A stretch of DNA of 64,000 bases from NCBI RefSeq assembly GCF_003334255.1, contig NZ_QOWU01000003.1; one strand, given 5' to 3'. Each line of letters starts with the position of its first letter. The first letter of the stretch is position 1. The notes beneath the pieces are model-generated. The model did not search any database. It had not been told where the DNA came from and saw only the letters and a list, made by a program, of their open reading frames with translations. Source of the DNA: Escherichia coli (GTDB lineage Bacteria > Pseudomonadota > Gammaproteobacteria > Enterobacterales > Enterobacteriaceae). Below, piece by piece: positions 286-35,274 of the stretch. The position numbers were made by a program, and so were the translations under genes.

Positions 286-402
286 GTTGCCGGATGCGGC
301 GAAAACGCCTTATCCGGCCTACAAAATCCAACAACATTAACGAATTAAACAACCCGTAGGCCGGACAAGATGCGCCAGCATCGCATCCGGCACGATCCCC
401 AA
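286..402. repeat. REP (repetitive extragenic palindromic) elements, two units
   Basis: gccggatgcggcg...cgccttatccggcctac and gtaggccggacaag...gcatccggcacg; typical REP consensus in convergent intergenic space between yhaL and cyuA. Confidence 0.6.
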
Positions 403-412
403 AACCTGGCGT

Positions 413-1723
413 TTATCTGGCCTTGCTCGCCATAATCTCGATAATCTGCCGATCCGTTTGCTGCATCGAATGGCTTGCTAACGCACACAGGTTGGCAATC
501 GACTGCTCAACATCATGCGCCACAATCCCTTCATTGCCGGTCACGGCGGTATCATCCAGCGCCATTAACACCGCTTTCCACGCAGCCGAAGCACTGGTCG
601 AAACCTTCATCGCGCAGCTGTTCGACGCACCATCGCAAATCATGCCGCTGACATCGCCGATCATACTGCTGATCGCCATCGAGATGGTTTCATAACGCCC
701 ATCCACCAGCCATGCCATCCCGGCGGCGGCCCCCATTGCTGCGGTCGTTGCGGCACACAGCGCAGACAAACGCGGTAACTGGTTATGGATGTAAATTGCG
801 CTCAAATGCGAAAGCATCAGCGCACGCGCCAGCCGTTCATCATCCGCTCCGAAGTGTTCTGCTACCACCACCACAGGCATTGTTGCGGTAATCCCCTGGT
901 TACCCGAGCCGGAGTTACTCATAGCCGGAAGCGTAGCGCCGCCCATACGCGCATCGGATGCCGCGCTGGTACGAATCACAATGGATGAAGAGAGATCTTT
1001 CGCCAGCAAACCGCGCTCGCACTGTTTTTCCAGCGTCGCGCCAATATGCAGCCCCCACTTACCGCTCAAACCTTCCTGCGATAACGCACAATTTAGCTTC
1101 GCGGAATCGAGAATAAAGCGGATCGCCGCAAACGGGACTTCATTGACGAACTTCAGGATCTCAGCCAGCGTCGTTCTGGAAAGCACCGTCAGCGGAGACT
1201 CTTGCTCGCCCTCTGCCACACACGCCTGCTGGGTAAACACCACACCATCGTGCGTCTCGATATGCACAATGTTGGTATGCCCGCCGACGATGGTGACACA
1301 CGCCCACTTCTCACCGTTCCAGACTTTGGCGCGTGAGAAGAGGATTTCATCGCAAGGTTCCTGGATCTTAACGGAGACTTTCCCCGCCGCCAGCAGTGCT
1401 TTGGCATCGGCAATTGCCTGCGCTGTTGCGTCTTTCAGCACTTCCAGCCCGGCGTTGGCATTTCCACCTAACGCCCCCAGCGCCGCCGCAATCGGCAGCC
1501 CCACCATTCCCGTGCCGGGAACGGTGACGCCCAGACCGTTCTTCATCAGATTTGGCGAAACCCAGGCTTCTACACGTTCAACCGGACCTTCCAGTTCTGC
1601 CGCAGCAACCGCCGCCGCCAGCGCCAGTGAAATCGGTTCAGTACATCCCAGCGCCGGTTTTACTTCCTCCTGAACGGCGAGGATGTAACGCTGCCATAAC
1701 GGATTTAAAGTCGAATCAAACAT
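413..1723 (-). CDS. cyuA: L-cysteine desulfidase CyuA (YhaM), serine dehydratase-like family, 436 aa
   Basis: Supplied ORF translation [38 protein letters not shown]...; length and synteny with yhaO match K-12 yhaM. Confidence 0.9.
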
Positions 1724-1750
1724 ATTAAAAACCTTAAAATTTCAGGTAAA

Positions 1751-3082: not shown

Positions 3083-3306
3083 AATTTCTCGCTCAATATT
3101 TTGTAGGGCTTATTATTTTTTTCCGAGCCGCATCAAGGCGATATGCGGTCTACGTTTTTGCAGGCGAGTTATTAGAATAAAGAAATGATACGCGCGAGGT
3201 CAGAGAAAATCTTCACAATCAAGACTTTGAAATAACGGAGATGGATAAGAATTTTCTACTAAATTAATCGCAGGAGAATATTCATTCTCTATTTGCGGCA
3301 GATCAC

Positions 3307-3332
3307 AAAAAAAAGGTGCACATTTGTGCACC
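3307..3332 (-). terminator. rho-independent terminator downstream of tdcG
   Basis: Minus strand reads ggtgcacaaatgtgcacc (8-bp arm inverted repeat) followed by a T-run (plus strand A-run 3307-3314). A second small hairpin gctgaca-gcaa-tgtcagc lies at about 3344-3361 next to the tdcG stop. Confidence 0.55.
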
Positions 3333-3356
3333 CAAGGATGAAAGCTGACAGCAATG

Positions 3357-4721
3357 TCAGCCGCAGACCACTTTAATGGCCAGTCCTCCGCGTGATGTTT
3401 CGCGGTATTTATCGTTCATATCTTTGCCGGTTTCATACATCGTCTCGATCACTTTATCGAGTGAAACACGCGGTGCCGAGGTGCGGCGCATCGCCATCCG
3501 CGCGGCGTTTACTGCTTTCACGGCATTAATGGCATTACGTTCAATGCACGGGATTTGTACCTGTCCGGCAACCGGATCGCAGGTCAGCCCAAGGTTATGC
3601 TCCATCGCGATTTCCGCCGCATTGCATACCTGCGCCGGACTGCCGCCCAGTAGTTCAGTTAACCCTGCCGCCGCCATTGAACAGGCCACGCCAATCTCCC
3701 CCTGACAGCCGACTTCCGCGCCAGAGATGGAGGCGTTCATTTTATACAGCGCGCCAATAGCCCCCGCGGCCAGAAAATAGCGGGCAATTGACCGCTCGTT
3801 TACCGGACGACGGAACTTATCGTAATAAGCCAGTACTGCCGGAATAATGCCGCACGCACCGTTAGTCGGTGCCGTTACCACGCGCCCGCCAGCTGCGTTT
3901 TCTTCACTAACCGCCAGCGCGTACATGTTGATCCAGTCGATGACATTCATCGGATCGTTAGAGATGTTATCGCTGGAAACCAGCTGACGACGCAGCGCTA
4001 CGGCACGGCGCGGCACATTGAGCGGACCAGGCAGCACGCCTTCAGTGTTCATCCCACGTTCAATACCGTCATGCATCACTTGCCAGATACGGGCAAAACC
4101 GGCGTCAATTTCCGCTTTGCTGCGCAGCGCTAGCTCGTTGTGCATCATCAGACCAGATATAGACAGGCCGTTGTAATCACACATTTTCAGCAGTTCACCT
4201 GCTGAGTGGAAATCGTAAGGTACGGACGTTTCGACATCGTGCGACAGGCCGAAGTGTTCTTCTTCGACAATAAACCCGCCGCCGACAGAGTAATAGGTTT
4301 TACTTAATAGCTCTTCCTGTCCCTTCCAGGCAGTGATCCGCATTCCGTTCTCATGGCGAGGCAACATTTCGGGATGGAAGATAATGTTCTTTGCTACAGG
4401 AAAATCAACAATATGCGCACCAGATGCCACTGGCAGCCGCCCGCTGCGCGTTACTAACTCTATAAATGCAGGGATCTCATCAATGACAACATCCTGCGGA
4501 CTGTTTCCTGCCAGTCCCATGATGATGGCGACATCCGTGGCATGGCCTTTGCCCGTCAGTGACAACGACCCGTACAGATCGACCACAATATGGCTCGTCG
4601 CGGTTAATAAGCCGCTACTTTCCAGCCGATCAATAAAACTTTTTCCGGCATTCATTGGCCCCACGGTATGCGAACTGGAGGGACCAATCCCAATTTTGAA
4701 AATATCGAATGCACTAATCAT
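3357..4721 (-). CDS. tdcG: L-serine dehydratase TdcG, 454 aa
   Basis: ORF contains [23 protein letters not shown]..., the Fe-S L-serine dehydratase signature; ATG (cat on plus) at 4719-4721 gives 454 aa; the track ORF begins 2 codons upstream at a GTG. Confidence 0.9.
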
Positions 4722-4792
4722 ATCCACACCCTCGGATTGCCGTTCAGTGAAGTGGAGCGGAACGACCTTACGACCGTCCCGCTCACGAGGCT

Positions 4793-5182
4793 TTACGCAC
4801 TACGTACTGCGATGGCTTCAATTTCCAGCTTCACATCTTTCGGCAAACGCGCGACCTGCACACAGCTCCGGGTCGGATAGGTCGCCTGATGCTCATCGAA
4901 GAACTGCTTATAGACTTCGTTGATGGTGGCAAAATCATTCAGATCGGTGATAAACACGGTCATCTTGATGATATCGCCCACGCTCAGCCCGGCAGCAACC
5001 ACGATCGCTTTGACGTTTTCGAGGCTTAAACGCGCCTGATCTTGCACATCAGCCGGGATCTCACCGGTCTGTGGGCAAACCGGTATTTGCCCGGAGGTGA
5101 AGACCATGCTGCCTAAATCAACGCCCTGAACATAAGGGCCGATTGCGCCTGGGGCACGTTGCGTTTCGATAATCTTTTTCAT
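4793..5182 (-). CDS. tdcF: RidA-family enamine/imine deaminase TdcF, 129 aa
   Basis: MKKIIETQRAPGAIGPY... (YjgF/RidA fold); ATG at 5180-5182 preceded by GGAGGA RBS; the longer track ORF (150 aa) is an upstream extension overlapping tdcE. Confidence 0.88.
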   Translation of the reverse strand: MKKIIETQRAPGAIGPYVQGVDLGSMVFTSGQIPVCPQTGEIPADVQDQARLSLENVKAIVVAAGLSVGDIIKMTVFITDLNDFATINEVYKQFFDEHQATYPTRSCVQVARLPKDVKLEIEAIAVRSA

Positions 5183-5195
5183 ACATCCTCCGGCG

Positions 5196-7490
5196 TCAGA
5201 GCGCCTGGGTAAAGGTACGTGAAATAACATCCTGTTGCTGTTCACGGGTCAGTGCGTTGAAGCGCACGGCGTAGCCAGAGACACGGATTGTCAGGTTAGG
5301 ATATTTTTCCGGGTGCTCGATGGCATCCAGCAGCATTTCCCGATTCATTACGTTGACGTTGAGGTGTTGACCGCCTTCGACATCCGCTTCGTGGTGGAAA
5401 TACCCATCCAGCAGGCCGACAAGGTTGGTTTTACGTACTGGATCTTCTTTGCCCAGCGCCGCAGGAACGATTGAGAAGGTGTACGAGATCCCATCTTTGG
5501 CGTAGGTGAACGGCAGTTTCGCCACCGACGTCAATGAGGCCACGGCACCTTTGCGGTCACGACCATGCATCGGGTTAGCGCCCGGCGCGAACGGTGTTCC
5601 GGCGCGACGACCGTCCGGCGTATTACCGGTTTTCTGGCCGTACACCACGTTAGAAGTGATAGTCAGAATCGACTGGGTAGGGACGGCGTTGCGATAGGTT
5701 GGCAGCGCTTTAATTTTCTTCATAAAGCGTTCAACCAGGTCGCAGGCAATGCTGTCTACGCGCTCGTCGTTGTTGCCGTACTGCGGATATTCACCGTCGA
5801 TTTCAAAGTCCACCGCCAGGCCGTTTTCGTCACGGATTGGTTTCACGCGGGCATATTTGATGGCAGACAGGGAGTCCGTCGCCACCGACAGGCCCGCGAT
5901 GCCGCATGCCATAGTGCGATAGACATCACGATCGTGCAGCGCCATCAGCGAAGCTTCGTAGCTGTACTTGTCGTGCATGTAGTGAATGATATTCAGCGCG
6001 CTGATGTACTGCACCGCCAGCCAGTCCATGAAGTGATCGAGGCTGTCCATCACTTTGTCGTAATCCAGCACGTCGTCCATCAGCGGTGCTGTTTTCGGCC
6101 CGACCTGAATCTTCAGCTTCTCGTCCACCCCGCCGTTAATTGCGTAGAGCAGCGTTTTCGCCAGGTTAGCGCGTGCACCAAAGAACTGCATTTGCTTACC
6201 AATCACCATTGGGCTGACGCAGCAGGCAATCGCGTAATCGTCGCTGTTGAAGTCAGTACGCATCAGATCGTCATTTTCATACTGCAAGGAAGAGGTGACG
6301 ATCGACACCTGCGCGGCATATTTTTTGAAGGCAATCGGTAATTCCTCCGACCAAAGAATGGTCAGGTTAGGTTCCGGTGCCGGCCCCATAGTGTGCAGGG
6401 TGTGCAAATAGCGGAAGGAGTTTTTGGTCACCAGCGTACGACCGTCCAGCCCCATCCCGCCGATCACTTCCGTCGCCCAGATTGGGTCGCCGGAGAACAG
6501 CGAATCAAATTCCGGTGTACGCAGGAAGCGTACCATACGGATCTTCATGATGAAGTGATCGATCAGTTCCTGTGCCTGCTGCTCATTGAGTACGCCAGCT
6601 TTAAAGTCGCGCTCAATGTAGATATCGAGGAACGATGCCGTGCGGCCCAGCGACATCGCGCCGCCATTTTGCGATTTCACTGCCGCCAGATAAGCGAAGT
6701 AGAGCCACTGCACCGCTTCCTGCGCATTCTGCGCCGGGCGAGAGATATCAAAGCCATATTTCGCCGCCATTTCCTGAATCTGCAACAGCGCATGACGATG
6801 CTCTGCCAGCTCCTCACGCAGACGGATGGTGGCTTCCAGATCCTCGCCTTTTTCCAGACGAGACTGGAGATCGGCAAATTGCAGTTCGCGTTCACGTACC
6901 AGATAACTGATGCCATACAGCGCTACGCGGCGATAGTCACCGATAATGCGCCCACGGCCATAGCCATCTGGTAAACCGGTCAGCACGCCAGATTTACGGC
7001 AGCGCAGCATATCCGGTGAGTAAACATCAAATACGCCCTGGTTATGGGTTTTACGCAGATCGGTAAACAGATATTCAAATTCACTGTCCATTTCTCGGCC
7101 ATAGGCGTGGAATGAACTTTTAATCATATTAATGCCACCGAACGGGTGTAGCGCACGTTTCAACGGCGCATCCGTTTGCAGGCCAACAATTTTTTCCAGC
7201 GGCTGGTTAATATATCCCGCATCATGAGCGGTAATTGTGGTGGCAATATTGGTATCGAAATCAACCGGCGCGTGGGTTGCATTTTCGATACGGATGCCTT
7301 CCATTACTTTTTCCCACAATTCCGTGGTGGCAGGCGTCGCTTCGGCGAGGAAAGATTCATCGCCTTCATACGGTGTATAGTTATGTTGAATAAAATCGCG
7401 GACATTAATTTCGTTTTTCCAGTCCGTACCTTTAAAGCCAAGCCATGCGTCGGCGTACAGCTTATCGCTGGTATCAATATCTACCTTCAT
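5196..7490 (-). CDS. tdcE: 2-ketobutyrate/pyruvate formate-lyase TdcE (glycyl radical enzyme), 764 aa
   Basis: PFL-family translation with C-terminal glycyl radical motif RVSGYAVRF; length and synteny match tdcE. Confidence 0.93.
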
Positions 7491-7523
7491 GAAAAATAAT
7501 CTCTCTACAATACTTCAACTAAA

Positions 7524-8732
7524 TTATGCAAATTCTGCGGGCGCGTTAACTTTGCCTAAATGAATGGCATCCAAAGCAATCATTTTTTCTTCGTTAGTCG
7601 GAATAACGGCACAAATGACACGCGCATTTTCACTGGAAACAATTCGCTCACCACAGGAGTTAGAGCGATTATTCATTTCTGTATCAATCTCTAAGCCTAA
7701 TACAGCCAAATGTTCCATGACCAGACGACGAATTAAGCTTGAATTCTCTCCTATTCCGCCGGTGAATATAATTCCATCCAGGCGACGTAATGAAGCTGCG
7801 TGTCCGGCAATATGACGGGCAATTCGGTGAACAAAGGTTTTAATTGCCAGTTGCGCGCGTTCGTGACCTTCATGCCAGGCTTTTTCCAGAACACGTAAAT
7901 CCGAAGAAAGACCGGAAATACCTAATAATCCCGACTCTTTATTCACTACGCGTTCCAGGTCACCCAGGCTCTGGTTGGTTTGGCTGGCGACCCAGGACAT
8001 CGCACCAAAGTCGACATCGCCACTGCGGGTACCCATCATCAAGCCTTCCAGCGGCGTCATTCCCATTGAGGTATCAACACTCTGACCGTTGCGAACCGCG
8101 CAGATTGACGCGCCATTGCCAAGATGCGCCACAACCAGGCCGGAGTCATCTTCCGCCAGATTCAGCAGCGAATGTGCGCGCTGGGAAACATAGCGGTGCG
8201 ACGTGCCGTGGAAACCATAACGGCGTACACCTAACTCTTCATAATATTTCCACGGCAGGCCGTATAAATAAGCTTCCGGAGCCATCGTCTGGTGGAAACT
8301 GGTATCAAATACCGCCACCTGAGTTACGCCCGGAAATAATTGCTGCGCCGATTCAATACCACTTAAATTGGCGTAATTATGCAGGGGTGCCAGTGGAGAA
8401 ACGCGACGGATATTATCAATGACTTCATCGGTAATAATGGCGGACTCGGTAAAAATACTGCCGCCGTGAGCGATGCGGTGGCCAATTAAGGCCACACTGT
8501 CATTTAAATTCCGTTTTTCCAGTTCAAATGCAATTGCCTTCAATGCACCTTCGTAGCTGTGGTGAGCCAGCGGTGCTGGCTCTCCCCCATTTACGGATAA
8601 GAATGCATTTTCCGAGTTAATACCGTCGGCAATACCTGACATTAATACTTCACAGTCGCTGGCATCGAGCACGGAAAACTTAATCGAAGACGAACCACAG
8701 TTAATAACCAAAACAACCGGAAATTCATTCAT
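7524..8732 (-). CDS. tdcD: propionate/acetate kinase TdcD, 402 aa
   Basis: [23 protein letters not shown]... acetate kinase family; ATG at 8730-8732; the track ORF starts 4 codons upstream. Confidence 0.9.
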
Positions 8733-8757
8733 CTCTTTTCTCATCCTGAGTTACGGA

Positions 8758-10092
<1,335 letters not shown>

Positions 10093-10110
10093 CTATCCTC
10101 AACGAATTAA

Positions 10111-11100
10111 TTAAGCGTCAACGAAACCGGTGATTTGAGAGACGCGAGAAAGATCGATATTGCCGCCGGAAATAATACTGACGGTTTTTCTGTTTTGAAT
10201 ATATTGGTCTAATTTACCGCTTAATAATGCAGCACATGCCAGAGCGCCTGCGCCTTCGGTGACGACTTTATTGCGCTGAATTAAGGCAATCATACTGTTT
10301 CTGATTTCGTCTTCGCTGACCAGCACGATGTCATCGACTAATTCACGAACGATTTCGTAAGTTAAATTACCCGGGCGGGAGACATCACAACCATCCGCCA
10401 GGGTGCCGGTAGTTCGGTGCGTGGTTATTTCTCCGGAGTGGAAAGAAGCCGCCATGCCGTGAACGTTTTCAGACTGTACGCCAATAACACGAATGGTCGG
10501 GTTAATAGATTTAATTGCCACCGCAATACCAGCAATTAAACCGCCACCACCAATTGGCACAATCACGTTATCGACATCATAGAGATCTTCCATAATTTCC
10601 AGACCAATCGTTCCCTGGCCAGCAATCACTTTCGGATCATCGTAAGGTGGGATAAAAATACGGCCTTCCATTTCGACAATTTCGCTCACTTTAGCGATAG
10701 TGTCGTTGAAGTTATCACCATGCAGAACGACTTCTGCGGAGTAGTCGCACGTTGCCGCTACTTTGGATTTTGGCGCACCTTTTGGCATCACCACTTTACC
10801 GTCGATACCCAGCATCGCGCAGGAGAGGGAAACCCCTTGCGCATGGTTGCCCGCAGAACAGGCCACCACGCCTTTGCGTTTTTCCGCATCGGTCAGTGAA
10901 CTTAATTTATTAAATGCGCCACGAATTTTAAATGAACCCGTACGCTGCATATTTTCAAACTTCAGGAATATTTCACCTTTGCAACGTTCACTAAAATAGT
11001 TGGAGCGAGGCATGCCTGTTTTATAAATTCGCCCAGCCAGTCGTTGTTTCGCTTCAATAATGTCATCAATAGCAACCGGCAGATCGTATGTAATATGCAT
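10111..11100 (-). CDS. tdcB: catabolic threonine dehydratase TdcB (PLP-dependent), 329 aa
   Basis: [62 protein letters not shown]... with PLP lysine motif SFKIRG. Confidence 0.93.
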
Positions 11101-23872: not shown

Positions 23873-25153
23873 GTGAAACATCTGACAGAAATGGTGAGAC
23901 AGCACAAAGCGGGCAAAACAAATGGAATTTATGCCGTTTGTTCCGCACATCCGCTGGTGCTGGAGGCTGCAATCCGCTACGCCAGTGCAAACCAAACGCC
24001 GTTACTGATTGAAGCAACCTCCAATCAGGTAGACCAGTTCGGCGGTTATACCGGAATGACGCCCGCCGATTTTCGCGGCTTTGTTTGTCAGCTCGCCGAC
24101 TCGTTGAATTTCCCGCAGGATGCGTTGATTCTGGGTGGTGACCATCTGGGGCCAAACCGCTGGCAAAACCTGCCGGCCGCTCAGGCAATGGCCAATGCCG
24201 ATGATTTGATTAAAAGCTACGTTGCGGCAGGATTCAAAAAAATCCACCTTGATTGCAGCATGTCCTGTCAGGACGATCCGATTCCCTTAACTGATGACAT
24301 CGTGGCTGAACGCGCCGCCCGTCTGGCGAAAGTGGCGGAAGAAACCTGTCTTGAACACTTTGGCGAAGCCGATCTGGAGTATGTCATTGGTACCGAAGTG
24401 CCGGTACCTGGCGGCGCGCATGAAACCTTAAGCGAGCTGGCGGTCACCACGCCGGATGCCGCCCGCGCCACGCTGGAAGCCCATCGTCACGCCTTTGAAA
24501 AGCAAGGTTTGAATGCCATCTGGCCACGCATCATTGCCCTGGTGGTTCAACCCGGCGTCGAATTCGATCACACCAACGTTATTGATTATCAGCCCGCCAA
24601 AGCGAGCGCCTTAAGCCAGATGGTCGAAAACTACGAAACGCTGATTTTCGAAGCGCACTCTACCGATTATCAAACGCCGCAATCGCTGCGCCAGCTGGTG
24701 ATTGACCACTTTGCCATTCTGAAAGTTGGCCCAGCGCTGACCTTCGCCCTGCGTGAAGCTCTGTTCTCTCTGGCGGCGATTGAAGAAGAACTGGTGCCAG
24801 CGAAAGCCTGTTCTGGTCTGCGTCAGGTGCTGGAAGACGTGATGCTCGACCGCCCGGAATACTGGCAAAGCCACTACCACGGTGACGGCAACGCGCGTCG
24901 TCTGGCGCGTGGTTATAGCTACTCGGATCGCGTGCGCTATTACTGGCCGGACAGCCAGATTGATGACGCTTTCGCTCATCTGGTACGTAATCTGGCGGAT
25001 TCACCAATTCCGCTGCCGCTGATCAGCCAGTATCTGCCGCTGCAGTACGTGAAAGTTCGCTCCGGCGAGCTGCAGCCAACGCCACGGGAACTCATTATCA
25101 ACCATATTCAGGACATCCTGGCGCAGTACCACACAGCCTGTGAAGGCCAATAA
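23873..25153 (+). CDS. kbaZ: tagatose-bisphosphate aldolase non-catalytic subunit KbaZ (AgaZ), 426 aa
   Basis: GTG start at 23873 preceded by GGAGAGG; translation [37 protein letters not shown]... (GatZ/KbaZ family). Confidence 0.92.
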
Positions 25154-25175
25154 GCAAAACAAAGAGGAACACGCT

Positions 25176-25649
25176 ATGCCAAATATTGTTTTAAGCCGGA
25201 TTGATGAACGCTTGATTCACGGTCAGGTCGGCGTTCAATGGGTCGGATTTGCGGGGGCAAATCTGGTGCTGGTAGCCAACGATGAGGTTGCCGAAGATCC
25301 GGTACAACAAAACCTGATGGAAATGGTACTGGCAGAAGGGATCGCCGTACGTTTCTGGACGCTGCAAAAAGTTATCGACAACATTCATCGCGCCGCCGAT
25401 CGACAGAAAATCCTGCTGGTTTGTAAAACACCCGCCGATTTCCTGACGCTGGTGAAAGGTGGCGTTCCGGTGAATCGCATTAACGTTGGCAATATGCACT
25501 ACGCCAATGGCAAACAACAAATCGCCAAAACGGTTTCTGTGGATGCGGGCGATATCGCAGCATTTAACGACCTGAAAACCGCTGGGGTGGAATGCTTCGT
25601 TCAGGGCGTCCCGACAGAGCCTGCTGTGGACCTCTTTAAATTACTTTGA
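25176..25649 (+). CDS. agaV: PTS N-acetylgalactosamine-specific EIIB component AgaV, 157 aa
   Basis: MPNIVLSRIDERLIHGQVGVQWVGFAG... (mannose-family IIB with active-site His); ATG at 25176 after AAGAGGA RBS. Confidence 0.9.
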   Translation: MPNIVLSRIDERLIHGQVGVQWVGFAGANLVLVANDEVAEDPVQQNLMEMVLAEGIAVRFWTLQKVIDNIHRAADRQKILLVCKTPADFLTLVKGGVPVNRINVGNMHYANGKQQIAKTVSVDAGDIAAFNDLKTAGVECFVQGVPTEPAVDLFKLL

Positions 25650-25659
25650 GGGATTCATC

Positions 25660-26439
25660 ATGGAAATCAGCCTGTTGCAGGCATTTGCGTTGGGCATTAT
25701 CGCCTTTATCGCTGGCCTGGATATGTTTAACGGCCTAACCCATATGCACCGCCCGGTGGTCCTCGGCCCGTTGGTCGGGCTGGTACTTGGCGATCTGCAT
25801 ACCGGAATTTTAACCGGCGGTACGCTGGAACTGGTGTGGATGGGGCTGGCCCCGCTGGCGGGCGCACAGCCGCCTAACGTGATTATCGGTACTATCGTCG
25901 GCACGGCGTTTGCCATTACTACTGGCGTGAAACCCGATGTCGCAGTAGGTGTCGCCGTACCTTTCGCTGTCGCAGTACAGATGGGGATTACCTTCCTGTT
26001 CTCGGTGATGTCCGGCGTGATGTCTCGCTGCGACCGGATGGCGGAGAACGCCGATACTCGCGGCATTGAACGCGTGAACTATCTGGCACTGCTGGCACTC
26101 GGCATTTTCTATTTTCTCTGCGCTTTCCTGCCTATCTACTTCGGCGCGGAACATGCAAAAACCATCATTGATGTCCTGCCGCAACGATTAATCGACGGCC
26201 TCGGCGTCGCGGGCGGCATCATGCCAGCAATCGGTTTTGCCGTGCTGCTGAAAATCATGATGAAAAACGTCTACATCCCCTACTTCATCCTGGGCTTTGT
26301 TGCCGCCGCCTGGCTCAAGTTACCAGTGCTGGCTATTGCTGCCGCTGCGCTGGCGATGGCGCTGATCGACTTGCTGCGTAAATCTCCTGAACCGACTCAA
26401 CCTGCGGCACAGAAAGAGGAATTTGAAGATGGCATCTAA
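25660..26439 (+). CDS. agaW: PTS N-acetylgalactosamine-specific EIIC component AgaW, full length (259 aa)
   Basis: Mannose-family IIC membrane protein; full length here, whereas the K-12 MG1655 allele is truncated by a deletion (established knowledge). Confidence 0.88.
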   Translation: MEISLLQAFALGIIAFIAGLDMFNGLTHMHRPVVLGPLVGLVLGDLHTGILTGGTLELVWMGLAPLAGAQPPNVIIGTIVGTAFAITTGVKPDVAVGVAVPFAVAVQMGITFLFSVMSGVMSRCDRMAENADTRGIERVNYLALLALGIFYFLCAFLPIYFGAEHAKTIIDVLPQRLIDGLGVAGGIMPAIGFAVLLKIMMKNVYIPYFILGFVAAAWLKLPVLAIAAAALAMALIDLLRKSPEPTQPAAQKEEFEDGI

Positions 26440-27307
26440 TCAAACCACCCTGCCGAACGTCAGTGAAAACGAAGAAACATTGCTGACTGGCGTCAATGAA
26501 AACGTGTATGAAGATCAGAGCATTGGCGCGGAGCTGACGAAAAAAGATATCAACCGCGTCGCCTGGCGTTCCATGCTGTTACAAGCGTCTTTTAACTACG
26601 AACGTATGCAGGCTTCTGGCTGGTTGTACGGTCTGCTGCCTGCTCTGAAAAAGATCCACACTAATAAACGCGACCTGGCGCGCGCCATGAAGGGGCATAT
26701 GGGTTTCTTCAATACCCATCCGTTTCTGGTGACGTTTGTTATCGGCATTATCCTTGCGATGGAGCGTTCTAAGCAGGACGTTAACAGTATTCAGAGCACC
26801 AAAATTGCCGTCGGTGCGCCGCTTGGCGGGATTGGCGATGCAATGTTCTGGCTAACGCTACTGCCGATTTGTGGCGGGATTGGAGCCAGTCTGGCATTGC
26901 AAGGCTCCATTCTTGGCGCAGTCGTCTTTATTGTGCTGTTCAACGTGGTACACCTGGGGCTGCGTTTTGGTCTGGCGCATTATGCTTACCGCATGGGCGT
27001 GGCGGCGATTCCACTGATTAAAGCGAATACCAAAAAAGTCGGCCATGCTGCGTCTATCGTTGGGATGACGGTAATCGGTGCGCTGGTGGCAACCTATGTT
27101 CGTTTAAGCACCACGCTGGAAATCACGGCGGGCGACGCAGTGGTTAAGTTACAGGCTGATGTTATCGACAAACTGATGCCGGCCTTCTTACCGTTGGTCT
27201 ACACCCTGACCATGTTTTGGTTGGTACGCCGCGGCTGGAGTCCGCTGCGTCTGATTGCAGTTACCGTGGTTCTCGGCATCGTCGGTAAATTCTGCCATTT
27301 CCTTTAA
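26429..27307 (+). CDS. agaE: PTS N-acetylgalactosamine-specific EIID component AgaE, 292 aa
   Basis: ATG at 26429 (MASNQTTLPNVSENEETLL...) 9 nt after AAGAGGA; mannose-family IID; overlaps the agaW stop. Absent from K-12 MG1655. Confidence 0.88.
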   Translation: MASNQTTLPNVSENEETLLTGVNENVYEDQSIGAELTKKDINRVAWRSMLLQASFNYERMQASGWLYGLLPALKKIHTNKRDLARAMKGHMGFFNTHPFLVTFVIGIILAMERSKQDVNSIQSTKIAVGAPLGGIGDAMFWLTLLPICGGIGASLALQGSILGAVVFIVLFNVVHLGLRFGLAHYAYRMGVAAIPLIKANTKKVGHAASIVGMTVIGALVATYVRLSTTLEITAGDAVVKLQADVIDKLMPAFLPLVYTLTMFWLVRRGWSPLRLIAVTVVLGIVGKFCHFL

Positions 27308-27324
27308 ATACAATGAGGTATTAG

Positions 27325-27759
27325 ATGTTAAGTATTATTTTGACAGGGCATGGCGGGTTTGCCAGCGGCATGGAAAAAGCAATGAAGCAAATTCTCGGTG
27401 AGCAATCGCAGTTTATCGCCATCGATTTTCCGGAAACCTCAAGCACCGCGCTGCTTACATCGCAGCTTGAAGAGGCCATCGCCCAACTGGATTGTGAAGA
27501 CGGCATTGTTTTTCTGACGGATTTGCTGGGCGGCACGCCGTTTCGCGTAGCTTCAACGCTGGCGATGCAAAAACCGGGCTGTGAAGTGATCACCGGCACC
27601 AATTTGCAACTGCTACTGGAGATGGTGCTGGAGCGCGAAGGGTTAAGCGGTGAAGAATTCCGTGTACAGGCGCTGGAGTGTGGACACCGAGGGCTGACCA
27701 GTCTGGTGGACGAGTTAGGCCGCTGCCATGAAGAATGTCCGGTCGAGGAAGGAATATGA
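27325..27759 (+). CDS. agaF: PTS N-acetylgalactosamine/galactosamine EIIA component AgaF, 144 aa
   Basis: MLSIILTGHGGFASGMEKAMKQILGEQSQFIAIDFPE... (mannose-family IIA with active-site His in the TGHGGFA context). Confidence 0.88.
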   Translation: MLSIILTGHGGFASGMEKAMKQILGEQSQFIAIDFPETSSTALLTSQLEEAIAQLDCEDGIVFLTDLLGGTPFRVASTLAMQKPGCEVITGTNLQLLLEMVLEREGLSGEEFRVQALECGHRGLTSLVDELGRCHEECPVEEGI

Positions 27760-28889
27760 CACACGTTCTGCGCGCCAGAAGGCTGCTGACTGAAGAGGGA
27801 TGGCTCGATGACCATCAGTTGCGTATTGCTGACGGTGTCATCGCAGCAATCGAACCGATTCCAGCGGGCGTGACTGAACGCGATGCGGAACTGCTCTGCC
27901 CTGCTTACATCGACACCCATGTACACGGTGGTGCGGGCGTTGATGTAATGGATGACGCGCCGGATGTACTCGACAAGCTGGCAATGCACAAGGCACGCGA
28001 AGGTGTCGGCAGTTGGTTACCGACCACCGTAACCACGCCGCTTAATACCATTCATGCGGCGCTGAAACGTATTGCTCAACGTTGCCAACGCGGCGGACCT
28101 GGTGCGCAAGTGCTGGGGAGTTATCTCGAAGGACCGTACTTCACGCCGCAGAATAAAGGCGCGCATCCGCCGGAGTTGTTTCGCGAGCTTGAAATTGCCG
28201 AGCTGGATCAGTTGATTGCCGTTTCTCAGCACACCTTACGTGTGGTAGCGCTGGCACCGGAAAAAGAAGGGGCATTGCAGGCCATCCGCCATCTTAAACA
28301 GCAAAACGTAAGGGTGATGCTGGGGCATAGCGCGGCGACCTGGCAACAAACCCGCGCCGCATTTGATGCTGGTGCCGACGGCCTGGTGCATTGCTATAAC
28401 GGGATGACAGGTTTACATCACCGCGAACCGGGAATGGTTGGCGCGGGATTAACGGACAAGCGCGCCTGGCTGGAACTGATAGCCGATGGTCATCATGTGC
28501 ATCCGGCGGCAATGTCGCTGTGTTGTTGCTGTGCGAAAGAGAGAATCGTACTGATCACCGACGCGATGCAGGCAGCTGGGATGCCGGATGGTCGCTATAC
28601 GTTATGTGGTGAAGAAGTGCAGATGCACGGTGGCGTTGTCCGTACCGCGTCTGGTGGGCTGGCGGGCAGTACGCTGTCTGTTGATGCGGCAGTGCGCAAT
28701 ATGGTCGAGTTGACGGGCGTAACGCCTGCGGAAGCCATCCATATGGCGTCACTGCATCCGGCGCGAATGCTGGGTGTTGATGGTGTTCTGGGATCGCTTA
28801 AACCGGGCAAACGCGCCAGCGTCGTTGCGCTGGATAGCGGGCTACATGTGCAACAAATCTGGATTCAGGGTCAATTAGCTTCGTTTTGA
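27756..28889 (+). CDS. agaA: N-acetylgalactosamine-6-phosphate deacetylase AgaA, full length (377 aa)
   Basis: MTHVLRARRLLTEEGWLDDHQLRIADGVIAAIEP... with NagA-type metal ligands (HVHGG); ATG overlaps the agaF stop (ATGA). Full length here; K-12 MG1655 carries a 5'-truncated allele. Confidence 0.88.
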   Translation: MTHVLRARRLLTEEGWLDDHQLRIADGVIAAIEPIPAGVTERDAELLCPAYIDTHVHGGAGVDVMDDAPDVLDKLAMHKAREGVGSWLPTTVTTPLNTIHAALKRIAQRCQRGGPGAQVLGSYLEGPYFTPQNKGAHPPELFRELEIAELDQLIAVSQHTLRVVALAPEKEGALQAIRHLKQQNVRVMLGHSAATWQQTRAAFDAGADGLVHCYNGMTGLHHREPGMVGAGLTDKRAWLELIADGHHVHPAAMSLCCCCAKERIVLITDAMQAAGMPDGRYTLCGEEVQMHGGVVRTASGGLAGSTLSVDAAVRNMVELTGVTPAEAIHMASLHPARMLGVDGVLGSLKPGKRASVVALDSGLHVQQIWIQGQLASF

Positions 28890-28957
28890 TAGTTTGCTCC
28901 TTTATTGGGCCTTCACTTCCCCCGTAAGGCCTTTCTTTTTCTTTCGTTTTGATCTGT

Positions 28958-29048
28958 GCAGCGGTGTCGGATGCGACGCTAACGCGTCTTATCCGACCTA
29001 CAGTTGGTGACCGCAAGGCCGGATAAAGCGTTTGCGCCGCATCCAGCA
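28958..29048. repeat. REP elements between agaA and agaS
   Basis: gcagcggtgtcggatgcgacgctaacgcgtcttatccgacctac ... ggccggataaagcgtttgcgccgcatccagcaa. Confidence 0.6.
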
Positions 29049-29059
29049 ATCCCTTTTGC

Positions 29060-29239
29060 TTCCTTTATCTTTTCTTTCAACGATCACAAATTTCGTTTTA
29101 TTTCTTTTTTCTCCATTGAACTTTCAGTTTCTTTTCTATAGATTTTAATCAACGAAAGACATCACCAAGTGAAATGAAACGAAAGGCAAGTGAAAGCGAC
29201 AACGCCCGACGTCAAGTTCATCAGACTAAGGATTGAGTT
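29060..29239. promoter_or_regulatory. agaS promoter region with AgaR operator-like repeats
   Basis: Repeated motifs aaatttcgttttatttctttttt, cagtttcttttctatag, aatgaaacgaaaggcaagtgaaag; same CTTTCGTTT family as in the kbaZ promoter. Confidence 0.6.
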
Positions 29240-30394
29240 ATGCCAGAAAATTACACCCCTGCTGCCGCCGCAACCGGTACATGGACTGAAGAAGAGATCC
29301 GCCATCAGCCTCGCGCATGGATCCGTTCACTCACCAACATCGACGCGCTACGTTCCGCGCTCAATAACTTCCTTGAACCGTTACTGCGCAAAGAGAATCT
29401 GCGGATCATCCTGACCGGAGCCGGAACGTCGGCATTTATCGGTGACATCATCGCGCCGTGGCTCGCCAGCCATACCGGTAAAAACTTCAGCGCCGTACCG
29501 ACCACCGATCTGGTCACCAATCCGATGGACTACCTGAACCCAGCTCATCCGCTGCTGTTGATCTCCTTCGGTCGATCCGGCAACAGCCCGGAAAGCGTCG
29601 CAGCCGTGGAACTGGCAAATCAATTTGTACCGGAATGCTATCACCTGCCGATCACCTGCAACGAAGCGGGCGCTCTTTACCAAAACGCGATCAACAGCGA
29701 TAACGCGTTTGCCCTGCTGATGCCCGCAGAAACGCACGATCGCGGCTTTGCGATGACCAGCAGCATTACCACCATGATGGCCAGCTGCCTCGCGGTTTTC
29801 GCACCTGAGACGATCAACAGCCAAACCTTCCGCGACGTGGCGGATCGTTGCCAGGCGATCCTGACCTCACTGGGCGATTTCAGCGAAGGTGTGTTTGGTT
29901 ACGCACCGTGGAAACGGATCGTTTATCTCGGTAGCGGTGGCTTACAGGGCGCAGCACGCGAGTCGGCGCTGAAAGTGCTGGAACTGACGGCGGGTAAACT
30001 GGCGGCCTTTTATGATTCTCCAACCGGATTCCGTCATGGACCAAAATCGCTGGTCGATGACGAAACGCTGGTGGTGGTATTTGTCTCCAGCCACCCTTAC
30101 ACCCGTCAGTATGATCTTGATCTGCTGGCTGAACTTCGCCGTGACAACCAGGCAATGCGTGTAATCGCCATCGCCGCGGAAAGCAGCGACATCGTCGCTG
30201 CCGGTCCACATATCATCCTGCCACCGTCACGTCACTTTATCGACGTTGAGCAGGCATTTTGCTTCCTGATGTACGCCCAGACGTTTGCACTGATGCAGTC
30301 GCTGCACATGGGCAATACGCCGGATACCCCATCAGCCAGTGGCACCGTTAACCGCGTGGTGCAAGGCGTAATCATTCATCCGTGGCAGGCATAA
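29240..30394 (+). CDS. agaS: SIS-domain galactosamine-6-phosphate deaminase/isomerase AgaS, 384 aa
   Basis: Two SIS domains (…LTGAGTSAF… and …LGSGGLQGAARESALK…); translation MPENYTPAAAATGTWTEEEIRHQPRAW... Confidence 0.92.
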   Translation: MPENYTPAAAATGTWTEEEIRHQPRAWIRSLTNIDALRSALNNFLEPLLRKENLRIILTGAGTSAFIGDIIAPWLASHTGKNFSAVPTTDLVTNPMDYLNPAHPLLLISFGRSGNSPESVAAVELANQFVPECYHLPITCNEAGALYQNAINSDNAFALLMPAETHDRGFAMTSSITTMMASCLAVFAPETINSQTFRDVADRCQAILTSLGDFSEGVFGYAPWKRIVYLGSGGLQGAARESALKVLELTAGKLAAFYDSPTGFRHGPKSLVDDETLVVVFVSSHPYTRQYDLDLLAELRRDNQAMRVIAIAAESSDIVAAGPHIILPPSRHFIDVEQAFCFLMYAQTFALMQSLHMGNTPDTPSASGTVNRVVQGVIIHPWQA

Positions 30395-31267
<873 letters not shown>

Positions 31268-31433
31268 TCATTAGTTTTTTATGATTTATCCCAATGTACT
31301 TCCCGATTAATATCGGGGAGTGCCTTAATGGAAAAGGAGATAACTAAACCTTAATAAATACATCACTACAATATCGCAACAATAATATATTTAAAAAAAT
31401 TATATTATTCAACTTTATGGTGAGGATTACACA

Positions 31434-31910
31434 ATGACCAGTCCAAATATTCTCTTAACCCGTATTGATAACCGTCTGGTTCACGGTCAGGTTGGCGTGA
31501 CCTGGACATCCACCATCGGTGCAAATCTGCTGGTAGTCGTGGATGATGTTGTCGCTAACGATGATATTCAACAGAAATTAATGGGTATTACCGCGGAAAC
31601 CTACGGCTTTGGCATTCGTTTCTTTACTATCGAAAAAACCATTAACGTCATCGGCAAAGCTGCACCACATCAGAAGATCTTCCTGATTTGCCGTACGCCA
31701 CAAACGGTACGTAAATTGGTAGAAGGTGGTATTGACCTGAAAGATGTCAACGTCGGCAATATGCATTTCTCGGAAGGGAAAAAGCAAATCAGCAGTAAAG
31801 TTTATGTCGATGACCAGGATCTCACGGACTTACGTTTTATTAAACAACGTGGCGTGAATGTTTTCATTCAGGACGTCCCTGGCGATCAAAAAGAACAAAT
31901 CCCTGACTAA
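31434..31910 (+). CDS. agaB: PTS galactosamine-specific EIIB component AgaB, 158 aa
   Basis: MTSPNILLTRIDNRLVHGQVGVTWTSTIGANLLVVVDD...; paralog of agaV. Confidence 0.92.
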   Translation: MTSPNILLTRIDNRLVHGQVGVTWTSTIGANLLVVVDDVVANDDIQQKLMGITAETYGFGIRFFTIEKTINVIGKAAPHQKIFLICRTPQTVRKLVEGGIDLKDVNVGNMHFSEGKKQISSKVYVDDQDLTDLRFIKQRGVNVFIQDVPGDQKEQIPD

Positions 31911-31948
31911 ATCTAAAATCGCCTTAATATTGGTTTGAGGTAATAAAA

Positions 31949-32752
31949 ATGCATGAAATAACCCTACTTCAGGGATTATCCCTGGCGGCGTTAGTTTTTG
32001 TTCTGGGGATTGATTTTTGGCTGGAAGCCTTATTTTTATTCCGCCCGATAATCGTTTGTACCCTAACTGGCGCTATTCTCGGTGATATTCAGACTGGCTT
32101 AATTACCGGTGGTCTGACAGAGTTGGCTTTCGCCGGATTAACCCCTGCAGGTGGTGTTCAGCCGCCCAACCCGATTATGGCGGGTCTGATGACCACCGTC
32201 ATTGCATGGTCTACGGGCGTTGATGCCAAAACAGCAATTGGTCTTGGCCTGCCGTTTAGTTTGTTAATGCAGTACGTCATTCTGTTCTTCTATTCCGCTT
32301 TCTCATTATTTATGACCAAAGCCGATAAATGCGCGAAAGAGGCGGATACGGCAGCGTTTTCCCGGCTTAACTGGACAACGATGCTCATCGTCGCTTCAGC
32401 GTATGCGGTGATTGCTTTCCTCTGTACTTACCTGGCACAGGGGGCGATGCAGGCGCTGGTGAAAGCGATGCCCGCCTAGCTGACCCACGGCTTTGAAGTG
32501 GCTGGCGGTATTCTGCCTGCCGTTGGTTTTGGCTTGCTGCTGCGCGTAATGTTCAAAGCGCAATATATCCCTTACCTGATCGCCGGTTTCCTGTTTGTTT
32601 GCTACATCCAGGTCAGCAACCTGTTGCCGGTTGCCGTACTGGGCGCAGGCTTTGCGGTGTATGAGTTTTTCAATGCGAAATCCCGGCAGCAAGCGCAACC
32701 GCAGCCCGTTGCCAGTAAAAATGAAGAAGAGGACTACAGCAATGGGATCTGA
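31949..32752 (+). pseudogene. agaC: PTS galactosamine-specific EIIC component AgaC interrupted by an in-frame TAG at 32477-32479
   Basis: Track ORFs 31949-32479 (176 aa, ends ...LVKAMPA*) and 32498-32752 (84 aa) are in the same frame and together form a 267-codon mannose-family IIC. The stop lies in ...ALVKAMPA-TAG-LTHGFEVAGGILPAVGFGLLL..., where homologous IIC proteins have Trp (TGG). Could be a real nonsense allele or a sequence error. Confidence 0.75.
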
Positions 32753-33533
32753 AATCAGTAAAAAAGATATCACCCGTCTGGGCTTTCGTTCGTCGCTGCT
32801 GCAAGCGAGCTTTAACTACGAAAGGATGCAGGCGGGCGGTTTTACCTGGGCGATGTTGCCGATCCTGAAAAAGATTTATAAGGACGACAAACCGGGCTTA
32901 AGCGCGGCGATGAAAGATAACCTCGAATTTATTAATACCCACCCGAATCTGGTCGGATTCCTGATGGGGTTATTAATTTCGATGGAAGAAAAAGGAGAAA
33001 ACCGCGACACCATTAAAGGCCTCAAAGTGGCACTGTTTGGCCCAATCGCCGGGATTGGCGATGCGATTTTCTGGTTTACTTTGTTGCCGATTATGGCGGG
33101 AATTTGCTCATCATTTGCCAGCCAGGGAAACCTGCTGGGGCCGATTCTATTTTTCGCCGTTTACCTGCTTATCTTTTTCCTGCGCGTCGGCTGGACCCAC
33201 GTCGGTTATTCAGTCGGCGTGAAGGCGATCGATAAAGTGCGAGAGAACTCGCAGATGATTGCCCGTTCGGCAACCATCCTCGGGATCACGGTAATCGGCG
33301 GGCTGATCGCTTCGTATGTGCATATTAACGTGGTGACATCGTTTGCCATCGACAATACCCACAGCGTTGCGCTGCAGCAGGATTTCTTCGATAAAGTCTT
33401 CCCGAACATTTTACCGATGGCCTACACCCTGCTGATGTATTACTTCCTGCGGGTGAAAAAAGCGCATCCGGTGCTGTTAATCGGCGTGACTTTTGTGCTC
33501 TCTATTGTTTGTTCCGCATTCGGCATTTTGTAA
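32742..33533 (+). CDS. agaD: PTS galactosamine-specific EIID component AgaD, 263 aa
   Basis: ATG at 32742 (MGSEISKKDITRLGFRSSLLQASFNYERMQAGG...) overlapping the agaC stop; the track ORF has a 49-codon upstream extension. Confidence 0.9.
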   Translation: MGSEISKKDITRLGFRSSLLQASFNYERMQAGGFTWAMLPILKKIYKDDKPGLSAAMKDNLEFINTHPNLVGFLMGLLISMEEKGENRDTIKGLKVALFGPIAGIGDAIFWFTLLPIMAGICSSFASQGNLLGPILFFAVYLLIFFLRVGWTHVGYSVGVKAIDKVRENSQMIARSATILGITVIGGLIASYVHINVVTSFAIDNTHSVALQQDFFDKVFPNILPMAYTLLMYYFLRVKKAHPVLLIGVTFVLSIVCSAFGIL

Positions 33534-34289
33534 ATGGAACGAGGCACTGCGTCTGGTGGTGCCTCTTTACTTAAGGAATTTCATCCTGTGCAAACCCTTC
33601 AGCAAGTTGAAAACTATACGGCGTTAAGTGAACGTGCCAGCGAATATTTATTGGCCGTGATCCGTAGCAAACCGAATGCCGTGATTTGCCTGGCGACCGG
33701 AGCCACGCCATTACTGACGTATCATTATCTGGTAGAAAAAATCCACCAGCAGCAGGTTGATGTCAGCCAGCTCACCTTCGTGAAGCTCGACGAATGGGTG
33801 GATCTGCCATTAACGATGCCAGGCACCTGCGAAACTTTCCTGCAACAGCATATCGTGCAGCCGCTGGGGCTACGTGAAGACCAGCTCATCAGCTTTCGCT
33901 CCGAAGAGATAAATGAGACAGAGTGCGAACGGGTAACGAACCTGATTGCGCGCAAAGGCGGTCTGGATTTATGCGTTCTCGGATTGGGGAAAAACGGTCA
34001 TCTTGGGCTGAACGAACCGGGAGAAAGCCTGCAACCGGCCTGCCATATCAGTCAACTTGATGCCAGAACACAGCAACATGAGATGTTAAAAACCGCGGGT
34101 CGCCCCGTGACTCGTGGGATCACCTTAGGCCTGAAGGATATTCTCAATGCCCGCGAAGTTTTGTTACTGGTGACTGGCGAAGGAAAGCAGGATGCGACAG
34201 ATCGTTTTCTCACGGCTAAAGTCTCTACCGCTATCCCGGCTTCATTTTTATGGCTGCACAGTAACTTTATTTGTTTAATTAACACCTAA
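33534..34289 (+). CDS. agaI: NagB-like galactosamine-6-phosphate deaminase/isomerase AgaI, 251 aa
   Basis: Glucosamine-6-phosphate deaminase family translation; last gene of the aga cluster. Confidence 0.88.
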   Translation: MERGTASGGASLLKEFHPVQTLQQVENYTALSERASEYLLAVIRSKPNAVICLATGATPLLTYHYLVEKIHQQQVDVSQLTFVKLDEWVDLPLTMPGTCETFLQQHIVQPLGLREDQLISFRSEEINETECERVTNLIARKGGLDLCVLGLGKNGHLGLNEPGESLQPACHISQLDARTQQHEMLKTAGRPVTRGITLGLKDILNAREVLLLVTGEGKQDATDRFLTAKVSTAIPASFLWLHSNFICLINT

Positions 34290-34368
34290 CCAGATGAAAA
34301 ATTTGCTCAAAATGTTTAAATTAACTTATGTAACAGTCACGCATTATATTAAATAACATTTGACTGGG

Positions 34369-34639
34369 TTGAACATAACGCCGATAGCAAAAGGAGTTAT
34401 GTTCAACAATTTAATTTTAGATATACATATAACTTGTTCTATTAATAAATCACCTCGTATTCTGACTCGCCCCCTGGCGCAGCAAAGTCAGGCATTTATA
34501 CTCTTTTGAATACATAGAAAATTGATATCAATATAATGAAAATATCAAATATTTGCATATAAATATAATCTTAAAGCTCAGTCTATTTAATGTTCAATGA
34601 AATATTTCTGCCTGTATAATCTTTAAAGATGTTGAACAT
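34369..34639. promoter_or_regulatory. AT-rich yraH upstream region with four copies of the 8-mer TTGAACAT / ATGTTCAA
   Basis: TTGAACAT at 34369-34376 and 34632-34639; reverse complement ATGTTCAA at 34399-34406 and 34590-34597. The first pair forms a perfect 11-bp inverted repeat ttgaacataac / gttatgttcaa separated by 16 bp. Confidence 0.4.
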
Positions 34640-34689
34640 ATATTCACATTAAATATGATTATGTACTTGTTACAAGGATAAGGTTATAT

Positions 34690-35274
34690 ATGAATAAAGT
34701 TACAAAAACAGCTATTGCGGGCTTACTTGCGCTTTTCGCAGGTAATGCCGCTGCAACCGATGGTGAAATAGTTTTTGATGGCGAGATTTTAAAATCCGCT
34801 TGTGAAATCAATGACTCTGATAAGAAAATTGAAGTTGCTCTTGGTCACTATAATGCCGAACAGTTTCGTAATATTGGCGAGCGTAGCCCAAAAATTCCAT
34901 TCACTATTCCTTTAGTTAACTGCCCAATGACTGGGTGGGAGCACGATAACGGCAACGTTGAAGCGTCTTTCCGTCTATGGCTGGAAACGCGAGATAATGG
35001 CACCGTCCCTAACTTCCCTAATCTGGCAAAAGTAGGCTCTTTTGCTGGCATAGCGGCAACAGGTGTGGGTATCCGTATTGACGATGCGGAAAGCGGAAAC
35101 ATTATGCCACTGAATGCTATGGGCAATGATAACACGGTTTATCAGATCCCGGCGGAATCCAATGGTATTGTCAATGTTGACCTCATCGCTTACTACGTAT
35201 CAACCGTAGTTCCATCAGAAATCACCCCAGGGGAAGCAGACGCTATCGTTAACGTAACGCTGGATTACCGTTAA
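34690..35274 (+). CDS. yraH: fimbrial major subunit-like protein YraH, 194 aa
   Basis: Signal peptide MNKVTKTAIAGLLALFAGNAAA followed by a fimbrial subunit domain with C-terminal donor-strand-like ...IVNVTLDYR. Confidence 0.9.
   Translation: MNKVTKTAIAGLLALFAGNAAATDGEIVFDGEILKSACEINDSDKKIEVALGHYNAEQFRNIGERSPKIPFTIPLVNCPMTGWEHDNGNVEASFRLWLETRDNGTVPNFPNLAKVGSFAGIAATGVGIRIDDAESGNIMPLNAMGNDNTVYQIPAESNGIVNVDLIAYYVSTVVPSEITPGEADAIVNVTLDYR

Follow-up and report, generated by a model that had tools for sequence, protein, structure and literature searches.

A complete agaW-agaE-agaF-agaA segment in an Escherichia coli aga cluster otherwise nearly identical to that of K-12 MG1655

N-acetylgalactosamine (GalNAc) is a mucin sugar, and the ability to use it is a trait relevant to gut colonisation. 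The laboratory strain K-12 carries a 2.3-kb deletion in its aga cluster and is Aga- Gam- (PMC3668189). The locus discussed here lies in a 64,000-nucleotide stretch of Escherichia coli DNA (the window) whose aga flanks are almost those of K-12, and it raises the question of whether the genes lost from K-12 are complete here, how they came to be so, and what growth on GalNAc and on galactosamine would be expected as a result. The answer belongs to known biology: the window carries a normal, complete E. coli gene block, a correct but ordinary finding, the genes, the pathway and the K-12 deletion having been described since 2000.

The gene content of the region was established by transfer of the RefSeq annotation of strain G1/2 (99.99% identity to the window for the transfer, and 100% over 25000-30000), and the coordinates of agaW, agaE, agaF and agaA are those of the RefSeq/PGAP gene calls in that strain. 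Thirteen genes stand between yhaV and yraH in the order agaR / kbaZ-agaVWEFA / agaS-kbaY-agaBCDI (Table 1), the same order as in ATCC 8739 and in Sakai. ORFs of reference length are found for 12 of the 13 aga/kba genes, agaC being the exception.

Table 1. Coordinates of the aga cluster, and of features of the K-12 deletion, in the window
Feature	Position	Strand	Remarks
agaR, cluster repressor	22815..23624	-	intact
kbaZ	23873..25153	+	with agaV, first genes of the agaWEFA operon; intact
agaV (IIB)	25176..25649	+	same operon as kbaZ and agaWEFA; intact
agaW, GalNAc PTS subunit IIC	25660..26439	+	259 aa, ATG/TAA, no internal stop
Left direct-repeat copy CGCTGCGACC	26026..26035	+	the two blast blocks overlap by these 10 bases; copy kept by K-12
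Stretch absent from K-12 MG1655	26036..28340		2305 bp; by blastn, K-12 locus versus window
agaE, GalNAc PTS subunit IID	26429..27307	+	292 aa, ATG/TAA, intact
agaF, PTS subunit IIA	27325..27759	+	144 aa, ATG/TGA, intact
agaA, GalNAc-6-phosphate deacetylase (PGAP name nagA)	27756..28889	+	377 aa, ATG/TGA, intact
Right direct-repeat copy CGCGGCGACC	28331..28340	+	9/10 identical to the left copy
agaS	29240..30394	+	intact
kbaY	30407..31267	+	intact
Galactosamine branch agaB, agaC, agaD, agaI	31434..34289	+	all intact but agaC
agaC, galactosamine PTS subunit IIC, pseudogene	31949..32752	+	amber, codon 177

The original prediction held that the four central genes are all full length, with good ribosome-binding sites and overlapping start/stop junctions, and each part of this description is borne out. 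The ORFs are uninterrupted; Shine-Dalgarno-like motifs precede all four starts (GAGGGA, AAGAGGA, TGAGGT and GAGGAAGGA); the end of agaW and the start of agaE overlap by 11 nt; and an ATGA at 27756-27759 is common to the agaF stop and the agaA start. Curated models are matched end to end, at 410.5 bits for AgaW (NCBIfam NF040757, an equivalog model; cut-off 300, model positions 1-249/249), 617.6 bits for AgaE (NF040760; cut-off 500, 1-292/292), 219 bits for AgaF (NF040761; cut-off 130, 1-144/144) and 290 bits for AgaA (the nagA equivalog TIGR00221; cut-off 225.65). Since each protein exceeds its curated cut-off over its full length, the four ORFs are real genes and not chance ORFs. Antisense ORFs over the segment, such as those on the minus strand at 27321-27989 and 25641-26066, were taken as shadows of the coding strand.

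Comparison with solved structures places the transport subunits among the mannose-family PTS proteins. Against ManXYZ (6K1H), AgaW and AgaE align over approximately their whole length, AgaW through residues 1-244 with ManY and AgaE through residues 34-291 with residues 11-280 of the 283 of ManZ. AgaF aligns to the IIA-Man domain, with its His9 opposite the position-10 histidine of the IIA-Man chain (1PDO/1VSQ), the established phosphorylation site of IIA-Man. The ManXYZ and Aga proteins are paralogues with different sugar specificity, and they differ in construction: ManX fuses IIA and IIB, whereas the Aga system has the separate polypeptides AgaF and AgaV. The AgaF IIA is common to the GalNAc and galactosamine systems. 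AgaA can be aligned from end to end with solved NagA structures and keeps the HxH, LEGP, GHS, HxxN and TDA motifs; the stretches that align with the same motifs in the B. subtilis and human NagA structures read DTHVHGG, LEGPY, GHS, HCYNGM, HHREPG and TDAM, and the motif residues are assumed to have their established metal-binding role.

How the locus stands to that of K-12 follows from direct alignment. According to the original prediction, MG1655 should have truncated agaW and agaA and lack agaE and agaF; its annotation agrees, with agaW and agaA as pseudogenes and agaE and agaF absent. By blastn, positions 1-4077 of the K-12 locus fall on window positions 21959-26035, and positions 4068-11001 on 28331-35264. 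Both K-12 flanks are present in the window (99.93-99.94% identical), separated at the junction by 2305 bp that K-12 is without, so the locus is indeed not of the MG1655 type, and the K-12 deletion that fuses the 5' part of agaW to the 3' part of agaA is not found in the window. The stretch that K-12 lacks takes in agaE and agaF entirely, with the 3' two thirds of agaW on one side and the 5' half of agaA on the other, and its endpoints are two copies of CGC[T/G]GCGACC. Outside the deletion, the window is collinear with MG1655 and ~99.95% identical to it, with 7 differences over about 11 kb of flanking sequence; the DNA of agaR, agaV, agaS, kbaY, agaB, agaD and agaI is identical in the two, as is the agaS promoter region, while agaC is intact in K-12 and carries an amber codon in the window. 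With flanks so close to those of K-12, the window gives a clean view of the K-12 locus before the deletion, and of the 10-bp repeat at which the 2305 bp were lost.

The segment is very probably the ancestral, complete agaW-agaE-agaF-agaA, in a strain that is near-identical to K-12 here and never had the K-12 deletion. The near-identity of the flanks to K-12, and the general knowledge that E. coli strains often exchange DNA by homologous recombination, might instead suggest that the segment was regained from another E. coli by a deleted, K-12-like background, but we find this hardly credible: 4931 of the 5426 complete E. coli genomes (~91%) carry the intact segment, the K-12 junction was seen in only 370, and the seven full-length junction matches listed are all K-12, other laboratory strains or genomes of K-12-like size. 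Further, the K-12 junction lies on a short direct repeat, as a deletion would leave; the segment has the GC content of its flanks, with no composition shift; and many other strains, isolated from diverse hosts, carry the 5-kb stretch at 100% identity. Parsimony strongly favours a single loss in K-12. A foreign origin of the segment was likewise rejected, both composition and population counts speaking against it. Intact agaWEFA is the norm in E. coli, and because it is the norm, a locus that is not K-12-like is expected and not notable.

The segment can be set within the established pathway for GalNAc. Phosphate moves from AgaF (IIA) to AgaV (IIB), and AgaW and AgaE (IIC and IID) import GalNAc as GalNAc-6-P; this is converted to GalN-6-P by AgaA, or by NagA in its place, and AgaS deaminates and isomerises GalN-6-P to tagatose-6-P, which is phosphorylated and then cleaved by KbaY/KbaZ. 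In the absence of inducer, AgaR keeps the cluster repressed. The sequence of the window is compatible with this pathway, and the strain would be predicted to grow on GalNAc and not on galactosamine. Other genes required for GalNAc use (ptsHI, pfkA and nagA) map outside the window.

Expectations for the GalNAc branch can be drawn from two reference strains with experimental GalNAc growth, ATCC 8739 / E. coli C and O157:H7 Sakai. For the aga/gam (aga/kba) cluster of the former, PMC3668189 and PMC9628945 both cite Brinkkötter et al. 2000; E. coli C carries the full set of 13 genes and is Aga+ Gam+ (PMC3668189), and ATCC 8739 with agaWEFA deleted is Aga- (PMC9628945). The undeleted E. coli C / ATCC 8739 cluster has the same genes as the window in the same order, orientation and lengths, at 97.5-100% nucleotide identity per gene, although part of the agaA-agaS spacer differs. 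The original prediction had allowed for internal lesions missed at first sight; base-by-base alignment of the 13 aga genes against K-12, ATCC 8739 and Sakai brought no hidden lesion to light in agaW, agaE, agaF or agaA, neither indels nor stops. Relative to ATCC 8739 and Sakai, the four proteins have 0-4 conservative substitutions each. AgaF is identical in all three strains; AgaE is that of Sakai, with 1 substitution against ATCC 8739; AgaW has the single substitution T149I against both; and AgaA has 4 substitutions against each, V37A and A94T among them. The AgaW change was considered as a private lesion and rejected, an exact 63-mer with the I149 allele being found in 637 genomes from many hosts.

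These missense changes, with one regulatory difference, bear on the reading that the four genes are intact and the GalNAc branch is nonetheless silent or defective, leaving the strain Aga-. The agaR-kbaZ regulatory spacer carries an A->G change at 23810, 63 bp ahead of the kbaZ start; it is private to the window among the five sequences compared, the G being absent from K-12, ATCC 8739, Sakai and G1/2. It is also known that one missense change can abolish GalNAc use, as AgaF G91S does in spinach-outbreak O157:H7 (PMC3668189). The AgaF of the window keeps Gly91 and is the protein of Aga+ strains, however, and what has been said of AgaE and of the widespread I149 allele also argues against a defect. 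AgaA and NagA replace each other, AgaA being dispensable if NagA is present (PMC3668189), and the AgaR protein is the same in the window, K-12, ATCC 8739 and Sakai. A simple promoter scan placed no plus-strand promoter hexamer over 23810, which is weak evidence in the same direction. An Aga- strain is improbable on this balance, and with a working GalNAc branch as the preferred reading, the strain is to be scored as carrying the standard wild-type branch; metabolic models based on K-12 would wrongly call it GalNAc-negative.

For galactosamine, the agaC lesion on which the original prediction had based an expected impairment is real. A G->A change at 32478 turns TGG into TAG at 32477-32479 (W177*, codon 177 of 267), removing 91/267 residues of a polytopic membrane subunit, and PGAP annotates the agaC of G1/2 with an "internal stop". 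The strain is predicted to be galactosamine-negative because the stop at this codon truncates AgaC, which is the IIC of AgaBCD, the transporter specific for galactosamine; in E. coli C, which is Gam+, agaC has no stop. The O157:H7 strains EDL933 and Sakai offer a close precedent, combining intact agaVWEFA, agaS and kbaYZ with an agaC nonsense mutation; the amber explains their Gam- phenotype while Aga+ is kept (PMC3668189), the same combination as that predicted here. The two agaC lesions differ, with Q8* in O157:H7 and W177* in the window, so the stop in the window was rejected as a copy of the O157:H7 mutation; agaI, which has Q72* in O157:H7, is intact in the window. As an exact 63-mer, W177* occurs in 5/5255 genomes and Q8* in 297; the genomes with W177* are G1/2, G6/7, G8, Z1323HEC0300 and JNEC-KY173.

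The IIC is the only component missing, AgaB, AgaD, AgaF, AgaS and KbaY/Z being intact, and galactosamine might conceivably still be used if the TAG were read through or suppressed, or if AgaVWE or some other transporter took the sugar up. We judge this highly improbable: O157:H7, with AgaVWEF intact and an agaC amber, is Gam- and becomes Gam+ when supplied with agaBCD on a plasmid (PMC3668189), and the part of AgaC that is lost is large. Loss of galactosamine uptake in the window strain, with GalNAc uptake kept, is the reading we favour.

The amber itself offers an angle that is only mildly new and falls outside the agaWEFA coordinates. The TGG->TAG change at 32478 lies in a Dcm site (CCTGG) and is exactly the change that deamination of 5-methylcytosine on the opposite strand would be expected to leave. 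The O157:H7 agaC and agaI ambers were checked in the same way, and neither falls in a Dcm site. W177* is also found on another agaC haplotype, clearly divergent from that of the window; the amber has arisen at least twice. Taken with the other agaC amber, that of O157:H7, these observations could mean that natural E. coli repeatedly lose galactosamine uptake and keep the GalNAc branch, whether through a mutational hotspot alone or through relaxed or negative selection on AgaBCD; we hold this as a speculation that is rather unlikely to prove right. As for structured RNAs, no Rfam families were found in the aga region, and elsewhere in the window RNase P RNA, SraG, the S15 leader and naRNA4 are present.

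The window carries agaW, agaE, agaF and agaA intact (25660-28889) at a locus where agaE and agaF are missing from the annotation of K-12 MG1655 and both agaW and agaA are marked as pseudogenes. Alignment places K-12 3277000-3281076 on window 21959-26035 (99.93% identity) and K-12 3281067-3288000 on window 28331-35264 (99.94%), leaving 26036-28340, or 2305 bp, absent from K-12. Both claims of the original prediction about K-12, that its truncation of agaW and agaA came with removal of agaE and agaF and that the present locus is not of the MG1655 type, are borne out by this annotation and gap. The two K-12 blocks overlap by 10 bases because a short direct repeat lies at the deletion endpoints (CGCTGCGACC at 26026-26035, CGCGGCGACC at 28331-28340). 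A repeat at both endpoints is the signature of deletion between short repeats, from which we infer that the segment was probably lost by K-12, not gained by the window strain. GC content is the same in the segment as in its flanks (0.53-0.56). Earlier publications describe both the 2.3-kb deletion of K-12 and the aga/gam cluster as found in E. coli C and O157:H7 (PMC3668189, PMC9628945); the segment agrees throughout with that published cluster and is already known, ordinary biology.

Collinearity with K-12 MG1655 3254929-3316735 extends over the entire window at ~99.95% identity, which makes the strain, in this region, a very close natural relative of K-12; what the window shows is the K-12 aga locus before its deletion. 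Only two other length differences from K-12 were seen, a 113-bp repeat copy and one 1-base gap in 35164-64000. The repeat is a tandem array beside rnpB (14918-15197), with 2.5 copies in the window and one more in MG1655, which is 113 bp longer there. Rfam matches lie at the expected K-12 positions, with none inside the aga region of the 64,000-nt window.

Among complete E. coli genomes the K-12 state is the exception. The 5-kb query 25000-30000 is covered to at least 80% in 4932 of 5426 genomes, and a 63-mer from within the K-12 deletion is found in 4931 of the 5426, as against 370 genomes with a full match to a K-12 junction 70-mer; in this species, then, an intact segment is the norm. Five of the seven full-length junction matches listed bear K-12 or laboratory names (MG1655, K-12, ER1709, HB101, gb37), and the remaining two are a 4.64-Mb record and TSW4848-W1 (4.46 Mb, source note City Park Lake). 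A 4.83-Mb record labelled DH5alpha (NZ_CM135829.1) contains internal agaW sequence missing from K-12 derivatives, and its label looks doubtful.

Several RefSeq genomes are 100% identical to the window over 25000-30000, among them strain G1/2 from human faeces, which differs at only three positions over 17000-38000. The gene map carries the RefSeq annotation of G1/2 over to the window, with a direct check of every frame.

Features of the window, with NCBIfam assignments of the four proteins (scores and curated cut-offs in bits)
Feature	Position	Strand	Family	Score	Cut-off
agaR	22815-23624	-
kbaZ	23873-25153	+
agaV	25176-25649	+
agaW	25660-26439	+	NF040757	410.5	300
agaE	26429-27307	+	NF040760	617.6	500
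agaF	27325-27759	+	NF040761	219	130
agaA	27756-28889	+	TIGR00221 nagA	290	225.65
agaS	29240-30394	+
kbaY	30407-31267	+
agaB	31434-31910	+
agaC	31949-32752	+
agaD	32742-33533	+
agaI	33534-34289	+
RNase P RNA, SraG, S15 leader, naRNA4 (Rfam)	15175-15551, 58492-58663, 58893-59007, 60520-60590

The four genes prove to be exactly as first described from the sequence: each begins with ATG, ends with TAA or TGA, has no internal stop and is preceded by a Shine-Dalgarno-like motif; agaW and agaE overlap by 11 nt, and agaF and agaA share the ATGA at 27756-27759. All four products exceed their curated NCBIfam cut-offs across the whole length. AgaW and AgaE match ManY and ManZ of the mannose permease structure 6K1H near full length; AgaF aligns with IIA-Man, its His9 falling on the histidine of the N-terminal "G-T-H-G" position; AgaA can be aligned over its entire length with NagA enzymes of solved structure, and its HxH, LEGP, GHS, HxxN and TDA motifs are conserved. 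The roles of His9 and of these motif residues we take to be those established for the families. RefSeq/PGAP names agaA nagA (N-acetylglucosamine-6-phosphate deacetylase); the genuine nagA is at another chromosomal position, and automatic annotation therefore yields two "nagA" genes per genome.

Every gene was compared with its counterpart in ATCC 8739, the sequenced E. coli C and Aga+ (GalNAc-utilizing) reference, for which agaWEFA deletion gives an Aga- phenotype (PMC9628945), and in O157:H7 Sakai, of the Aga+ Gam- group (Gam, growth on galactosamine; PMC3668189). No indels were found against either strain, all lengths being equal, and no overlooked lesion in agaW, agaE, agaF or agaA emerged. 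AgaF shows no difference from either reference protein; its residue 91 is Gly, the position at which a change to Ser makes spinach-outbreak O157:H7 Aga- (PMC3668189). AgaE is identical to that of Sakai; AgaW differs from the references only by T149I, an allele present in 637 genomes; AgaA has four conservative substitutions and is dispensable if NagA is present (PMC3668189). The other pathway genes (agaR, kbaZ, agaV, agaS, kbaY) are likewise intact, and K-12 has an identical agaS promoter region. The regulatory spacer between agaR and kbaZ contains a private A-to-G change (23810, 63 bp before the start of kbaZ) that K-12, ATCC 8739, Sakai and G1/2 do not share. The agaA-agaS spacer has a palindromic REP-like stretch (~28990-29070) common to K-12 and Sakai, whereas ATCC 8739 has different sequence in its place.

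The agaC lesion mentioned in the original prediction is real: a single base differs from K-12, G to A at 32478, converting Trp177 (TGG) to an amber codon (TAG). AgaBCD is the galactosamine-specific transporter, and an agaC amber accounts for the Gam- phenotype of O157:H7, with GalNAc use retained (PMC3668189). This precedent gives good grounds for the predicted phenotype, GalNAc-positive and galactosamine-negative. The earlier observation is confirmed and its interpretation supported. The combination of intact agaVWEFA with nonsense agaC is already known; the O157:H7 allele is Q8* (297 complete genomes), and W177* is rarer (5 of 5255). Unlike Sakai and EDL933, the record "O157:H7 strain TR01" (NZ_CP033605.1) has agaC and agaI intact; either its lineage is atypical or the O157:H7 label does not stand for the classical EHEC clone.

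W177* lies within a Dcm site (wild type CCTGG, 32475-32479, codon 177). Deamination of 5-methylcytosine on the complementary strand is the classical mechanism of amber hotspots, and the G-to-A change is, as judged from its sequence context, the one expected from such an event on the opposite strand. Three of the five carriers (G1/2, G6/7, G8) show no difference from the window across 25000-30000. In the other two, Z1323HEC0300 and JNEC-KY173 (W177* within 16001-16063 of the two loci), agaC has 16 further differences and yraHIJK is absent next to aga, in contrast to the window, where this fimbrial operon is present from 34690; in both, agaI is followed directly by rsmI (~17855-17905 of these loci). 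Since W177* also occurs on this divergent agaC haplotype lacking yraHIJK, it probably arose at least twice, and repeated origin fits a mutational hotspot.
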